Below, piece by piece: positions 38,678 through 49,912 of a stretch of 64,000 bases of DNA. The position numbers and the translations under genes are program-made. Location: the IMG/VR virus record IMGVR_UViG_2703718815_000003; one strand, written 5' to 3'. The notes below the pieces were generated by a model, which saw nothing but the letters and a program-made list of their open reading frames with translations, searched no databases and was not told the origin of the DNA. Numbering within the stretch: the first letter of the stretch is position 1; each line of letters opens with the position of its first letter. This DNA comes from a virus (taxonomy: Duplodnaviria > Heunggongvirae > Uroviricota > Caudoviricetes).

Positions 38678-40711
38678 TTACTTAACTTGGTGGCCTGGTT
38701 TAGCACCAGCATCCGGGCTTAACAGGAAGATATCTTTTCCGCCAGGGCCAGCAGCCATCACCATGCCTTCGGAGATACCGAAGCGCATTTTACGCGGTGC
38801 CAGGTTAGCCACCATAATGGTGTGACGACCAATCAGTGCCTGTGGGTCTGGATAAGCAGAACGGATGCCTGAGAAGACATTGCGTTTTTCACCGCCGAGA
38901 TCCAGCGTCAGGCGCAGCAGTTTGTCAGAACCTTCAACAAACTCTGCGTTTTCGATCAGTGCCACGCGCAGGTCAACTTTGGCAAAGTCGTCAAAGGTGA
39001 TGGTTTCCTGAATCGGGTCGTCTGCCAGCGGGCCAGTAACTGGCGCGGCAGCTGCTTTCACTTCTTCTTTGGATGCTTCCACCAGTGCTTCAACCTGCTT
39101 CATATCGATGCGGTTATACAGTGCCTTGAACGGATTCACTTTATGGCCCAGCAGCGGTTGCTGGATACCATCCCAGGTCAGTTCTGTATTCAGGAATGCT
39201 TCTGCACGTTCAGTCAGTTTCGGCAGTACCGGCTTCAGGTACGTCATCAGCACGCGGAACAGGTTAATGCCCATAGAGCAAATCGCCTGCAGATCGGCAT
39301 CGCGTCCTTCCTGCTTCGCCACCACCCACGGAGCCTGTTCATCGACATAGCGGTTAGCCAGGTCAGCCAATGCCATGATTTCACGGATAGCTTTACCAAA
39401 TTCACGGCTTTCCCATGCTTCGCCAATCACTTCAGCGGCATCAGTAAAGGTTTTGTACAGTTGCGGGTCAGCCAGTTCGCTTGCCAGCACGCCGTCAAAA
39501 CGCTTGTTGATAAAGCCTGCATTACGGGAGGCCAGGTTAACCACTTTGTTCACGATATCGGCATTCACGCGCTGAACGAAATCCTCCAGGTTGAGATCGA
39601 TATCATCAATGCGCGAAGAGAGTTTCGCAGTGTAGTAGTAACGCAGGCTGTCAGCGTCAAAATGATTCAGCCAGGTGCTGGCTTTAATAAAGGTGCCGCG
39701 AGACTTGGACATCTTCGCGCCGTTCACCGTCACATAGCCGTGAACAAACAGGTTGGTCGGCTTGCGGAAGTTGCTGCCTTCCAGCATGGCAGGCCAGAAC
39801 AGGCTGTGGAAGTAAACAATATCTTTACCGATGAAGTGGTACAGCTCGGCGGTGGAGTCTTTCTTCCAGTATTCATCGAAGCTGGTGGTATCGCCGCGCT
39901 TGTCGCACAGATTCTTGAAGGAACCCATGTAGCCAATCGGCGCGTCCAGCCAGACGTAGAAATATTTGCCCGGCGCGTTCGGAATTTCAAAACCGAAGTA
40001 GGGCGCATCTCGGGAGATATCCCACTGTTGCAGGCCGGATTCAAACCATTCCTGCATTTTGTTCGCCACCTGCTCCTGCAACGCGCCGCTGCGGGTCCAT
40101 GCCTGCAACATTTCGCTGAAAGAAGGCAGATCAAAGAAGAAGTGTTCGGAATCACGCATTACCGGGGTAGCGCCAGAAACCACCGATTTCGGCTCGATCA
40201 ATTCAGTCGGGCTATATGTTGCGCCGCAGACTTCACAGTTATCGCCGTATTGATCTGGCGCTTTACATTTCGGGCAGGTGCCTTTTACAAAACGATCCGG
40301 CAGGAACATGCCTTTTTCCGGGTCGTACAACTGAGAGATAGTGCGGTTTTTAATAAAACCGTTCTCTTTCAGGCGAGTATAGATAAGCTCAGACAACTGA
40401 CGGTTCTCTTCGCTGTGCGTCGAGTGATAGTTGTCATAGCTGATGTTAAAGCCTGCGAAATCAGTCTGGTGTTCCTGACTCATTTCGCCAATCATCTGCT
40501 CCGGTGTGATACCAAGCTGCTGTGCTTTCAGCATGATCGGCGTACCGTGGGCATCGTCGGCACAGATGAAATTAACCTCGTGGCCGCGCATTCGCTGGTA
40601 ACGAACCCAGACATCAGCCTGGATGTGCTCCAGCATATGGCCGAGGTGGATTGAGCCGTTAGCGTACGGCAGCGCGCACGTCACCAGAATTTTCTTCGCG
40701 ACTTGGGTCAT
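38678..40711 (-). CDS. metG: methionyl-tRNA synthetase (host-type MetG)
   Basis: 677 aa from [26 protein letters not shown]; class I motifs SIHLGH and KMSKS, CPKC/CEVC zinc knuckle, C-terminal tRNA-binding domain. Matches enterobacterial MetG as I recall it, not verified by search. Confidence 0.95.
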
Positions 40712-40868
40712 AGTAGGCATTACTTCTTTGTAGTGAAAAGGGGCTTGATAGTAACAAAATGGCCTTATGTCTGCCATGTGATAACAGCATTTCTCATAAA
40801 TGATTAAATGTCGTAGCTGGAGTACACTACAAGGCGACAATTGCGCAAATTAAAATAAAGGAGACGGG

Positions 40869-41969
40869 ATGAGCGAGTCCAAATCGCCGGATGCCCTGAG
40901 AGCAATGGTAGCCGGTACGCTGGCTAATTTTCAGCACCCAACCCTGAAACACAACCTGACTACGCTTAAAGCGTTACACCATGTTGCGTTGATGGATGAC
41001 ACACTGCATGTCGAACTAATCATGCCTTTCGTGTGGAATAAGCCTTTTGAAGACCTGAAAGAGCAATGTAGTGGTGATCTGCTCCGTATCACTGGCGCAA
41101 AGGCTATTGACTGGAAGCTGTCGTACAACATTGCCACGCTTAAGCGCGTCAAAAACCAACCAGGCATTAATGGCGTTAAGAACATTATCGCCGTCAGCTC
41201 AGGCAAGGGCGGCGTGGGTAAATCCTCCACGGCGGTAAACCTGGCACTGGCGTTGGCTGCTGAAGGTGCGAAAGTTGGTATTTTGGATGCCGATATCTAT
41301 GGTCCATCAATTCCAACCATGCTGGGCGCGGAAAACCAACGTCCAACCTCACCTGACGGTACTCACATGGCACCTATCATGTCTCATGGCCTGGCAACCA
41401 ACTCTATTGGTTATCTGGTCACCGACGACAATGCAATGGTGTGGCGTGGACCGATGGCGAGCAAGGCGTTAATGCAGATGTTGCAGGAAACATTGTGGCC
41501 TGATCTGGACTATCTTGTTCTCGATATGCCGCCGGGCACTGGTGATATTCAGTTGACGCTGGCGCAGAACATTCCTGTAACTGGTGCTGTTGTGGTAACT
41601 ACGCCGCAAGACATCGCGCTGATCGATGCGAAGAAAGGCATTGTGATGTTCGAAAAAGTCGAAGTGCCGGTACTTGGTATCGTCGAAAACATGAGTGTGC
41701 ATATTTGCAGTAACTGCGGTCATCACGAGCCAATTTTTGGCACCGGTGGCGCAGAGAAACTGGCCGAGAAATACAACACGCAGTTGTTAGGCCAAATGCC
41801 ACTTCATATCTCTCTTCGTGAAGATCTGGATAACGGAACACCAACCGTTATTAGTCGTCCAGATAGTGAATTTACGGCTATTTATCGTGACCTCGCAGAT
41901 CGCGTTGCTGCCCAAATGTATTGGCAAGGTGAAGTAATACCTGGCGAAATCGCATTCCGCGCAGTGTGA
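40869..41969 (+). CDS. apbC: Fe-S cluster carrier ATPase ApbC/Mrp
   Basis: Mrp/NBP35 P-loop SSGKGGVGKS and CSNCGH motif; divergent from metG as in enterobacterial chromosomes. Confidence 0.95.
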   Translation: MSESKSPDALRAMVAGTLANFQHPTLKHNLTTLKALHHVALMDDTLHVELIMPFVWNKPFEDLKEQCSGDLLRITGAKAIDWKLSYNIATLKRVKNQPGINGVKNIIAVSSGKGGVGKSSTAVNLALALAAEGAKVGILDADIYGPSIPTMLGAENQRPTSPDGTHMAPIMSHGLATNSIGYLVTDDNAMVWRGPMASKALMQMLQETLWPDLDYLVLDMPPGTGDIQLTLAQNIPVTGAVVVTTPQDIALIDAKKGIVMFEKVEVPVLGIVENMSVHICSNCGHHEPIFGTGGAEKLAEKYNTQLLGQMPLHISLREDLDNGTPTVISRPDSEFTAIYRDLADRVAAQMYWQGEVIPGEIAFRAV

Positions 41970-42006: not shown

Positions 42007-42396
42007 CTACATCACGGGACAATCATCAAACTCGCCACTTCTTGCGTCGTTGATAATGTGAGTGATCACACCAAACACGGCATTGCTGCCCGTGCATCCA
42101 TCGTCATCCTTTGGCAATGCTTCCTTCTTACCGGTTCTTAAATCCTCCAGATGCTGACGTGGGTACTTCCGGTATCTTTTTACGCGATATTCCCCATCCA
42201 GAGCGCATACAAGCAGAGAACCATCAACCGGGGTAAGTGAGGAATCGACCACCAGCAATGCACCCTGTAATATTCCCTCACGATGATGACTATCAGCTGC
42301 CCTCATGAAGTAGGTCGCTGAAGGATGTCTAATTATCTGCTGATCAAGAGAAATACGGCTCTCAGCATAATCCGCCGCAGGAGAAGGGAAGCCCAT
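42007..42396 (-). CDS. UmuD'-like S24 peptidase-fold protein (pre-truncated UmuD homologue)
   Basis: Starts MGFPSPAADYAE...HPSATYF, i.e. at the UmuD segment after the RecA-cleavage site; Ser (AADSH) and Lys (VKRYRK) positions retained; no umuC partner; AGAGG RBS. Confidence 0.75.
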   Translation of the reverse strand: MGFPSPAADYAESRISLDQQIIRHPSATYFMRAADSHHREGILQGALLVVDSSLTPVDGSLLVCALDGEYRVKRYRKYPRQHLEDLRTGKKEALPKDDDGCTGSNAVFGVITHIINDARSGEFDDCPVM

Positions 42397-44854: not shown

Positions 44855-45039
44855 TAGGCAGCTCTCTCAACAACAAGCAATTCGTCGTAGTCATAATCAG
44901 TTTCGGAACCATCCGTACCGAACAGAGTCACTTTGTCATTTTCCATCCAAAAAGATTTAACCGCACATTGTTGACCTTTAGATGTTATGAGCACATCACC
45001 AGGGATTACGTCTTCAGCGCGAACCTCTAGTGTTCTCAT
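44854..45039 (-). CDS. hypothetical small protein
   Basis: 61-aa ORF coupled to neighbours. Confidence 0.35.
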   Translation of the reverse strand: MRTLEVRAEDVIPGDVLITSKGQQCAVKSFWMENDKVTLFGTDGSETDYDYDELLVVERAA

Positions 45040-45566
45040 CGTGCTGCCCCCTCTTTGGTGAAAATGCCTGCTGCAATGCTGTTTATGATGCTGTCAGTGC
45101 ATGGAGTAGAAAGCTGGGCATCTCCAGCAATTTTCATGACCTCAACATCCGCATATCGAATACCGAGGTGTATCAGACCGGCTATACCTGACTTAAGTCG
45201 AACATTTTCCATAAACAGATCTTTTTCCCGCTGTTTAGCGCCTTCCAACTCCATCGACAATTTTTCCAACTGCTCTTTATGCTTCTTGTATTCCTGATAC
45301 GCGTGCCAAGACTGACCTTTGCGCACACTATCAGTGATATCAGCAACCTGCTCTGGTGTTAGCGTGGTCAGTGGCTGTGCTGGAAAAATCATCACTTGCC
45401 CGGCATCCCAATCAAAACCCGCCTGAATTGACTGAACCTCAACTGATGGTGTTGAACCGATGCGACCAGGCGAATGAACAACGATCGTTACATCCATATC
45501 GCGACGATGGCTGTGGTTGTTGGACAAAATACGATTCACCAACTCAGAAAATTTGGAAAATTTCAT
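45036..45566 (-). CDS. hypothetical protein
   Basis: Start set to MKFSKF ATG at 45566 overlapping upstream stop. Confidence 0.45.
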
Positions 45567-45886
45567 GCTGATCCCTCTTTCTCTCCCCGGATAATTCTGT
45601 TGCACACATCCACACACTCGTCGCAGATGAAAACGGCGTCCCCAGCAATTAACTTTTTGACGGCGTACTGGGATTTGTTGCAGAAGCTGCAACAAAGTGT
45701 TCGCCTGACTGATAAGGATGGAGCGCCAGATGTCAGCCGCTCCATATCGTTCTTGCGACGCAATATCACACGGCTGAACTCAACCAGTTTCTCCGGGGAT
45801 ATATCCTCCTCCGTAGCAAGCGCCTCTAATCGTTCGAGTATGTGGAAGGCTTTTTCCTGGGTAATTGCAGAATGCGATGTGGTCAT
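45563..45886 (-). CDS. protein with ClpX-type N-terminal zinc-binding domain (ZBD)
   Basis: C-terminal [36 protein letters not shown] closely resembles the ClpX N-terminal C4 zinc finger; no AAA+ module. Confidence 0.6.
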
Positions 45887-45887
45887 C

Positions 45888-46490
45888 TCACTCTCCTTTG
45901 ATGCGAATGCCAGCGGCGCGGGAATCATTCCATCGCTTTACTTCTTCACGAATTACGTCAATGCATTCTTTCGAATCCATTAGGTAATCTTCATCAAAAA
46001 GACGTTCCTGTTCGTTTTCTATCGCAACAATGATTGCTTCAACTAACTTTTGTGCCTGAGAATCACTTTCTAACTCTGCTATGCGCTTACTCCCATCCGA
46101 GATAACACCTTCGTAATATTCACGCTGTTCGTTGAGTTTTGATTTTGTCTCCTCAAGCTCAACACGCAGCTTCTCAAGCGTTAGGACCATCTCTACGTTC
46201 TCCTGCTCAAGACGTCGGATGTGTTGCTGTCTTTTATCCAGTTCGTCCAGCAGTGCAATCACATCGGGATCACTAGCATCAACTACTGTTACGCGTGATT
46301 TTTCATAATGTTCGTCTGCAAAAGTACGCCCTATCTTAAAATATCCGTCATCACCCTCACCGGAACAGGCATAAACAACATGTGCTCCAGATATGCGCTG
46401 TATTGACATTTCCTCGCCACAAACAGAGCATTTAGGCGCTGGTTTTGGTGAATAACGTTCACGTAACGTCAGGTAGTAAATCTCATTCAC
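45888..46490 (-). CDS. zinc-ribbon + coiled-coil protein
   Basis: CSVCGEE...C motif then long coiled coil. Confidence 0.5.
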
Positions 46491-48226: not shown

Positions 48227-49912
48227 TCATTTAACGCATTTGAAAACGTATACGCTGACTGTGATCCCTGTGTCTTCAAACTCGTTGGTAAACGACTTCC
48301 CTCTGGCATAAACGTAATTATCCATCGTCATCCAGTCCAGTATTGGCGCAGTGCCCGGCAATACTGCTACAAGACGCCCGCCGACTTTCAGATGCCCCAG
48401 CGCAGCCAGCGTGTGCTCTCTATGACGACCAAGCGAGTACGGCGGGTTCATAACGATTTTGTCGAACTGATAACCTGCGTTGTCCTCAGACCACTTTATG
48501 AAGTCGCAGCAAATCGTGTTCGTATACCCTTTTCCAAGCAGGATATCAGCGAAGAGAGGTGCGATTTCTATGCAGGTAACATCTTCCAGATCGGCGTTAA
48601 TATAGGCCAGAAGATCCCCACGTCCGGCTTGAGGCTCCAGCAGCTTCTCACCAGGCTTCAATTCAGTGGCTCTGGCAACGTACTCAGCAATCAAGCGTGG
48701 GGTAGGGTAGAACTGGTGTGATTTTGTATCCGGTATTAAACCGGTAGCCACAATCGTATTTAGCGTATGGCCGATGTCATACGGGAACTGCCAGTGCTTT
48801 TTCTCCTGCACGCCGCCAATGAAGCTCAGTGTGCGCTCAAGCTCTTCCACCTGCGACTTCTGGAGAGCTGAATCAGAGAAGTACCATACGCCTTTGTCTT
48901 TGCTCAATCGCCCGTCACGAAGCGCAGTGCGAACCGGCACGGAGATCGTCTTCTGGATTAACCCGAACTGCTTTGGTGCCCGTGTTTTTGGCGCAGTTCG
49001 GCATGGCGCGGGGATTGCAGCAGGCATACTGTAAGCCAGCACCTCATTCAACTTCCAGGCCACGTCAGGATGTATTTCAAAGTGAACGTTGCCGTTCTTG
49101 AACATCTTCACGCGCATCAGATTTCCATCGACGTTCATCCAGTCACCGGTCTGGCAGTCGTTTGCTCGATACGCAGCTGATAGCACCTCAGCAGTGCGGT
49201 TGATGGTAATAAATTCTTTGTGCGCGAAGAAATGAAGCAAGACACGCAGATCGTCGATGTAGTCCTCTTTGCGATAGTTCACGCTAACGCTGTCCCGCCA
49301 GAAATCAGAAATGCAGTCAGCGATTATCAGACGCTCGCTGAAACCGTTTGTCTTATTTGTCTTGTGCGCAGGACTCAGCGCCTTAAACAAGCCATACACG
49401 CGCTCAGAGAGATATTTGTGCCTGTCATTCAGCAAATTAAGCATCGTGGGTATGACCGTTTCTGCTTTGAACTCCGGTACACCAACGAACTCTTTAACCT
49501 TCATCTGGTAGCCGGTTCTGTCAGTTTTGATGACTTCCTGTTTGCCCTCTATAAACTGCTCGCGCCACTCATCTCGACGGGAAGCTGGCATGATCAGCAA
49601 AACGTTAGTCATGTCCGTGACCTTCCTCCAGTACTCGGCCCAAATATTCTGTTTCACCCATTCCAGATCGACTTTATCCAACCAACCTCGATTTAAACGC
49701 GAGCGATCTTCATCTGGTCGATGGTTTAGTCTCAGCAGGCGATTAATCATGTTGTGGCGTTCGTCGCCATAAACGAAGTCGTGAACCTGATACATGAAGG
49801 CGATCTCTTTCTCGCACTCGGCCACAATTTCGTGGATGACGTTCATTTCCTGCCGATAGTCGATAGCAGTGTTTGAGTTGGCATCGTCGATGATGGAAAG
49901 GGCTGTATTCAT
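48227..49912 (-). CDS. DNA methyltransferase (N6A/N4C type) with large N-terminal domain
   Basis: C-terminal AdoMet motif LEPQAGRGDL followed by catalytic MNPPYS. Confidence 0.65.
   Translation of the reverse strand: MNTALSIIDDANSNTAIDYRQEMNVIHEIVAECEKEIAFMYQVHDFVYGDERHNMINRLLRLNHRPDEDRSRLNRGWLDKVDLEWVKQNIWAEYWRKVTDMTNVLLIMPASRRDEWREQFIEGKQEVIKTDRTGYQMKVKEFVGVPEFKAETVIPTMLNLLNDRHKYLSERVYGLFKALSPAHKTNKTNGFSERLIIADCISDFWRDSVSVNYRKEDYIDDLRVLLHFFAHKEFITINRTAEVLSAAYRANDCQTGDWMNVDGNLMRVKMFKNGNVHFEIHPDVAWKLNEVLAYSMPAAIPAPCRTAPKTRAPKQFGLIQKTISVPVRTALRDGRLSKDKGVWYFSDSALQKSQVEELERTLSFIGGVQEKKHWQFPYDIGHTLNTIVATGLIPDTKSHQFYPTPRLIAEYVARATELKPGEKLLEPQAGRGDLLAYINADLEDVTCIEIAPLFADILLGKGYTNTICCDFIKWSEDNAGYQFDKIVMNPPYSLGRHREHTLAALGHLKVGGRLVAVLPGTAPILDWMTMDNYVYARGKSFTNEFEDTGITVSVYVFKCVK

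Follow-up and report, generated by a model that had tools for sequence, protein, structure and literature searches.

Why would a phage encode a small protein that ends in the Clp ATPase ClpX's zinc-binding domain (ZBD) but lacks the ATPase itself? The protein in question is encoded in a 64,000-nt stretch of DNA from a member of the Caudoviricetes (IMG/VR record IMGVR_UViG_2703718815_000003; the whole stretch is called the window here), which is of the SSU5-like phage-plasmid type of ~108 kb (PhiR41_1, CMS-2020a, and pIso00225_02). A single open reading frame (ORF) of 107 codons plus the stop codon fills positions 45563..45886 on the minus strand, from an ATG at 45886-45884 to a TGA at 45565-45563, and direct reading of the sequence placed a Shine-Dalgarno motif, AGGAG, 6 nt 5′ of the ATG (45893..45897, minus strand). 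The gene is complete and specifies a protein of two domains (phrog_6797; RefSeq name "ClpX C4-type zinc finger protein"), referred to below as the ZBD protein. The explanation that we favor, and to which we give somewhat less than an even chance, is that this protein acts as a soluble ZBD in trans and intercepts ligands for which the ZBD of host ClpX is the docking site.

The protein's C-terminal portion (residues 64-102; 45581..45697, minus strand) is an authentic ClpX-type C4 ZBD and a member of PF06689 (zf-C4_ClpX); Pfam, PDB, and Foldseek agreed on this assignment, at a level far beyond chance. The Pfam match covered residues 65-100 and profile positions 2-38 of 39 (E = 1.3e-15; 57.4 bits, with a gathering threshold of 27 bits). 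When all PDB chains were searched with phmmer, ClpX entries alone matched, the best being the E. coli ZBD structures 2ds5 and 1ovx (E ~ 1e-14), and 28 of 41 residues were identical to residues 10-50 of E. coli ClpX. The four cysteines presumed to bind zinc (C66, C69, C88, and C91) correspond to C14, C17, C36, and C39 of ClpX, keep the CxxC-x18-CxxC spacing, and were invariant in all 18 aligned family members (18/18). F68, the equivalent of ClpX F16, was likewise invariant; position 98, the equivalent of ClpX I46, was I, V, or L in most members and A or G in P0019 and P0028. The β-hairpin LIAG..V(F/Y)IC, with its edge strand, was also conserved in the family. Thus, the claim of a sequence-only reading of this locus, that the C-terminal ~40 aa follow the N-terminal C4 zinc finger of ClpX, was borne out.

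A treble-clef ZBD fold was predicted by an AlphaFold2 model made from the family alignment (mean predicted local distance difference test score [pLDDT], 77; block means of 81-87 over residues 61-100). In Foldseek comparisons, the modeled ZBD lay within a root-mean-square deviation (rmsd) of 0.9-1.1 Å of the crystal structures 2ds5, 2ds6, 2ds7, and 2ds8 over 38 residues, with 71% identity to 2ds5 and 2ds8, so structure prediction did return a zinc-finger fold, and the failure named as a refutation in the sequence-only reading did not occur. The absence of the AAA+ module, which had also been claimed from the sequence, was equally clear: the ClpX equivalog models TIGR00382 and NF003745 were matched at positions 4-48 alone and gave 39.6-41.9 bits vs. 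cut-offs of 359-371, and the protein ends 5 residues past the ZBD helix. One position set the main subfamily apart. Residue 83 (45638..45640, in the turn of the β-hairpin) corresponds to ClpX P31 and was D or E in every main-subfamily member, whereas P occupied this position in ~98% of other ZBDs and in the P88 subfamily.

The remainder of the protein consists of a family-specific N-terminal domain, predicted to be a helical hairpin (residues 8-53; 45728..45865, minus strand; helices at residues 10-26 and 31-52), and a linker (residues 54-63; 45698..45727, minus strand). Confidence in the hairpin was high, with a core pLDDT above 90 when residues 10-52 were modeled alone, whereas pLDDT fell below 50 at residues 56-60 of the linker. 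The linker sequence varied among members (e.g., YTSSVSVRRT and GAPSVSASPT, and a 3-residue insertion in P0029). In the 18-member alignment, 20 columns of the N-domain were invariant, and its conservation was at least equal to that of the ZBD. The core motif EKA..(L/I)(L/I)ER(L/M)E(A/T)(L/M)A.EE…(L/I)RR.(K/N/D)D…L.S was common to the main, P88-type, and P0123-type subfamilies, and the N-domain alone matched phrog_6797 with E = 1.7e-26. The sequence-only reading had overlooked this separate, conserved domain, which makes a bare ZBD decoy an incomplete description of the protein.

The N-domain had no relative in profile searches of Pfam (E ≤ 10), NCBIfam, PADLOC, or PDB, and none by fold. An exhaustive phmmer search of 1.84 billion representative proteins returned 10 matches, of which 8 were family members or truncated or frameshifted copies and 2 were repeat proteins; no credible match outside the family was thus found among the 1.84 billion. 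The best non-family match, P0122, is a 650-aa metagenomic, eukaryote-like, ubiquitin-like protein with six BAG domains (Pfam BAG E = 6e-25), each repeat being ~32% identical to the hairpin over BAG helices 2-3. This lead was rejected because its E-value was inflated by the six homologous repeats and hhalign gave only 56%; the three-helix BAG model (PF02179) was not matched by the ZBD protein. The match of P0121 to the hairpin was discarded as a repeat artefact, and homology of the N-domain to the flanking Ea22-like proteins was ruled out on comparison. The hairpin was thus found in no other architecture, and the two-domain combination defines the family.

The full-length protein matched phrog_6797, whose function is unassigned in PHROGs, with residues 1-106 on profile positions 1-106 of 107 (E = 1.1e-58). 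The family comprises three subfamilies, with 43-51% identity for the P88-type and P0123-type subfamilies. Annotated coding sequences 97-99% identical to the gene were found in PhiR41_1, pIso00225_02, and NCCP15648, the P1-like phage-plasmid D6 encodes a homologue at 88% identity (gp034), and P88-type P2-family prophages, including those of UTI89 and ST131 strains, encode one at 51% identity (P88 gp19). The P88-type copy lies downstream of, and on the same strand as, the gpA replication gene and the parM/partition genes, and a further chromosomal prophage besides the P88 type also carries the gene. In total, the family was present in 25 IMG/VR contigs and, at blastn sensitivity, in 220 of 5426 complete E. 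coli genomes (~4%; 127 chromosomal and 106 plasmid copies). Source names also placed it in Salmonella enterica and Escherichia marmotae, and a scan of GTDB species representatives with the N-domain pattern gave no confirmed match. The family is therefore spread across phage types and tied to no single backbone, a point overlooked in the sequence-only reading.

The domain-level observation itself was already in public annotation (RefSeq and PHROGs), which the same reading had overlooked: the PGAP/RefSeq name "ClpX C4-type zinc finger protein" stood on every E. coli match among the matches listed. Many NCBI records carry the name "carboxylate--amine ligase" instead (e.g., P0004, P0005, P0007, P88 gp19, and D6 gp034). 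A carboxylate--amine ligase of the ATP-grasp or GCS2 type was rejected, because the sole Pfam domain is PF06689 and the rest of the protein is a 45-aa hairpin, and this name is a propagated misannotation; correcting it is of practical value for annotation even if the decoy hypothesis is wrong. The phage protein is thus of a catalogued kind, and a literature search found no study of the family or its function; within the searchable literature, functional work is the missing piece.

Free ZBDs were not confined to this family. In other small phage proteins, the ZBD was joined to an unrelated short extension (viral contigs L034:3839-4153, L035:3821-4156, L037:3911-4153, and L039:3704-4129; also L038, L040, L041, and L043), several high-GC viral contigs paired it with a single coiled-coil-like helix, and Pseudomonas phage PP9W2 encodes a 65-aa ZBD protein (BFVD A0A9E7CCK4). 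Free ZBDs are therefore a recurrent feature of phages.

Could the gene nevertheless be what is left, without function, of a clpX 5′ end that was once captured, that is, a pseudogene or a chance ORF? Truncated and frameshifted copies do exist (P0124-P0127). However, the ratio of nonsynonymous to synonymous substitution rates (dN/dS) between subfamilies was 0.22-0.32, and therefore the protein is under purifying selection. The two-domain ORF was intact, with its Shine-Dalgarno motif and translational coupling, across many phage backbones. Moreover, clpX is a universal housekeeping gene, whereas the ZBD gene was matched in only the 220 genomes given above, and no blastn-level DNA similarity to host clpX was detected across the 5426 E. 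coli genomes. A recent capture from host clpX was likewise unsupported, both for lack of that similarity and because some non-enterobacterial ZBDs were equally or more similar to the phage domain (78-85% over ~35 aa). The conservation data thus effectively refuted the pseudogene or chance ORF, which we regard as highly improbable. Intact copies occurred in at least four unrelated backbones of temperate phages, and their neighbors changed, so the gene behaves as an autonomous module whose target lies in the host and not in a fixed partner from the phage.

What this module does is best approached from ClpX itself. SspB, RssB, trigger factor, and substrates that include λO dock on the ClpX ZBD (PMC7804408, PMC7226468). 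Its hydrophobic patch contains F16 and I46, the residues required for trigger factor action, and overlaps the λO, SspB, and RssB sites (PMC7804408). Purified ZBD supplied in trans inhibits RssB-dependent σS degradation by ClpXP in vitro, and the ZBD dimer crosslinks to RssB (PMC7226468). Judged from the alignment, this ligand patch is retained in the family, with F68 invariant and position 98 mostly I, V, or L, which argues for a decoy, as does the independent carriage of small free-ZBD proteins by other phages. By analogy with the purified domain, the competition for ClpX adaptors or substrates suggested in the sequence-only reading is plausible.

Under the decoy reading, the protein would have an accessory role in temperate phages, its gene being transcribed together with "ea"-type or early genes. 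It would bind zinc and probably dimerize, and its ZBD would bind the XB tail of SspB, RssB, and tethering signals of the λO/MuA/UmuD type. With these ligands kept away from ClpX, adaptor- and ZBD-dependent proteolysis by ClpXP would be selectively reduced, and ZBD-independent degradation would stay intact. The hairpin would most likely oligomerize the protein, giving avidity for dimeric adaptors, or else provide specificity for one partner. Because the gene is placed in early or "ea"-type operons, early expression, with action during lytic development or induction, is suggested. We hold the wider proposition, that temperate enterobacterial phages and, independently, phages of other phyla carry domain-decoy inhibitors of ClpX active early in lytic development, more tentatively.

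Several observations weigh against this reading. A pure decoy would have no apparent need of a conserved N-domain with 20 invariant positions. Between the window and D6, which differ by few substitutions, ω was ≈1.8 for the ZBD and ≈0.2 for the N-domain, and the ZBD surface thus appears to be more variable than the N-domain among close relatives. Because the main subfamily replaces P31 by D or E, its ligand specificity may differ from that of ClpX; the acidic residue might adjust how tightly basic XB-like tails are bound or indicate that the ligand has changed. We know of no relevant ClpXP substrate that is common to SSU5-like, P1-like, and P2-like phages, and the literature search returned no binding, zinc, or proteolysis data for family members.

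Two other explanations are serious rivals. The ZBD fold might have been re-used outside ClpXP, as a zinc-stabilized module for dimerization or protein binding in a small protein that regulates phage development or another host machine, which we consider doubtful. The divergence of the ZBD surface within the family and the replacement of P31 by D or E in the main subfamily fit this proposal, as does the occurrence of PF06689 in other architectures, namely cyanobacterial sigma factors (PMC11119718) and small proteins that are extended differently; set against it is the retained ligand patch. A candidate function of this type is contact with a chaperone through the hairpin, which weakly resembles BAG helices 2-3, the ~32% identity to multi-BAG repeats belonging to the lead that was rejected as evidence for its repeat-inflated E-value.

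Alternatively, the protein could be a tether or adaptor, whose ZBD pairs with that of ClpX or is built into ClpX as this is newly made, and whose hairpin recruits a specific cargo for degradation or remodeling or sterically reprograms ClpX. Its conserved N-domain requires a function, and a binding domain followed by a flexible linker and a docking element mirrors the logic of adaptors. ClpX ZBDs are dimerization domains (PMC7226468, which cites Wojtyra 2003), and the 68-71% identity to the host ZBD, which includes the hydrophobic core, makes mixed dimers conceivable. However, ClpX ZBD dimers form between adjacent subunits at very high local concentration, have been described as stable, and are not known to exchange subunits, and the neighbors of the gene vary, leaving no co-conserved candidate for cargo. 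We rate a tether or adaptor as unlikely.

The phage domain and the ClpX ZBD share the Pfam domain, the four cysteines, 68-71% identity over ~40 residues, a predicted rmsd of ~1 Å, and the phenylalanine at F16. They differ in that the phage domain is C-terminal rather than N-terminal, follows an unrelated hairpin, is not followed by a linker and AAA+ module, and, in the main subfamily, has D or E in place of P31. The recombinant ZBD competitor (Micevski et al. 2020, PMC7226468) is also a free ZBD in trans, with the activity that by analogy is proposed for the phage protein, but it is a laboratory fragment of ClpX, whereas the phage protein is the product of a natural, selected gene and has an extra domain.

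Phages are known to damp host ATP-dependent proteolysis by other means. The λ protein RexB blocks the degradation of λO, Phd, and MazE (PMC11077077). Like the proposed decoy it is a phage or prophage protein with this type of effect, but it is a four-helix membrane protein and has no sequence or fold relationship to the ZBD protein. Among other inhibitors, λ CIII acts against FtsH, and T4 PinA and T7 Gp4.5 act against Lon; these too are unrelated to the ZBD protein in sequence and fold, and neither RexB nor any of them copies a domain of the protease itself. Mycobacterial ClpC2, a stand-alone partial homologue of ClpC1 that has the same ligand-binding domain, binds CymA, a ligand of ClpC1, and so protects the cell from it (PMC10030653). 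It shares with the proposed phage decoy the idea that part of a Clp ATPase, as a separate protein, captures a ligand of the complete enzyme, but it derives from another Clp ATPase, has another fold, and is encoded by a chromosomal gene, and its characterized ligand is an antibiotic.

The small proteins IraD, IraM, IraP, and IraL keep σS from being delivered to ClpXP (PMC4045071). A ZBD decoy would do likewise by binding the ClpX-docking surface of RssB, whereas the Ira anti-adaptors act on RssB through other surfaces, and the phage protein matched no Pfam Ira family. An SspB-type adaptor was not indicated either: no SspB match was found in Pfam, and the ZBD is followed at the C-terminus by EKEGSA, without a basic-hydrophobic XB-like tail. 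None of the PADLOC anti-phage defence models was matched at E ≤ 0.1. The ZBD protein is thus not ClpX, an SspB-type adaptor, an Ira anti-adaptor, a ligase, or a known defence protein. The other free-ZBD phage proteins (L034, L035, L037, L039, PP9W2, and phrog_12435) are likewise small and combine the ZBD with a short extension, but their extensions bear no relationship to the hairpin, being either one coiled-coil-like helix or absent.

ClpXP controls λO, MuA, σS (via RssB), ssrA-tagged proteins (via SspB), UmuD′, and several antitoxins, and much of this control depends on docking to the ZBD. If the decoy reading is correct, the protein would be the first natural trans-acting ZBD, a compact natural reprogramming of host proteolysis through mimicry of the protease's own receptor domain. 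It would parallel RexB, CIII, PinA, and Gp4.5 but act on a different principle. It could stabilize an antitoxin or a replication protein of the phage or plasmid, or block abortive-infection systems triggered by proteases, and, as a selective tool, it would allow the ZBD-dependent functions of ClpXP to be separated from the ZBD-independent ones. Because the family occurs in ~4% of complete E. coli genomes, effects on RpoS, on SOS and mutagenesis proteins, and on toxin-antitoxin stability could matter for host physiology; carriers include ST131/UTI89-type prophages and CTX-M-15-carrying SSU5-like phage-plasmids.

Within the window, the gene is closely flanked on both sides. Upstream lies an Ead/Ea22-like gene (45888..46490, minus strand; PF13935, E = 1.8e-32) in the same transcription unit, whose stop codon (45888-45890) ends 1 nt ahead of the ATG of the ZBD gene. 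Downstream lies a 176-aa gene (45036..45566, minus strand), the start of which, at 45566, forms an ATGA overlap with the stop codon of the ZBD gene. From the overlap and the 1-nt gap, the ZBD gene therefore belongs to a block of small accessory genes that are closely packed and run in one direction. A scan for internal promoters and terminators around the ZBD gene gave no convincing candidate and nothing informative. An alternative reading of 121 aa, from an ATG at 45928, falls within the upstream Ea22-like gene; the 107-aa product is the likely one because homologues with other upstream genes begin at the MTTSHSA start.

Neither neighbor was a fixed companion. The upstream neighbor differed in P88/UTI89 and in three viral contigs (L027-L029), so the Ea22-like gene is not a conserved partner. 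The N-terminal ~120 aa of the downstream product correspond to phrog_6026 (E = 4e-56), and the C-terminal part is mosaic; between loci, the phrog_6026 part was 81-88% identical and the C-terminal part was exchanged. A phrog_6026 gene was a frequent neighbor and followed ZBD genes of 77-98% identity in viral contigs (L024, L027, L028, L031, and L047). It was rejected as an obligate partner, because in the Punavirus Ro157c2YLVW it occurs without the ZBD gene, following DUF4752, and because unrelated genes take its place next to the ZBD genes of D6 and P88/UTI89.

Farther along the same minus-strand gene block, a 561-aa DUF4942 protein without other annotation is encoded at 48227..49912. UmuD/UmuD′ is a known ZBD-tethered client of ClpXP, and a UmuD-like S24 peptidase (42007..42396, minus strand) is encoded a few kilobases from the ZBD gene, together with a full-length methionyl-tRNA synthetase (38678..40840, minus strand; PF09334, E = 5e-166) and an ApbC/Mrp-type Fe-S carrier ATPase (40869..41969, plus strand). 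We claim no link to the UmuD-like neighbor, since the ZBD gene is also present in phages without it. In the near-identical SSU5-like phage-plasmid pIso00225_02, ISEcp1-blaCTX-M-15 was inserted ~3 kb from the ZBD gene block (L006:12468-14861), and SSU5-like elements of this kind are a vehicle of resistance.
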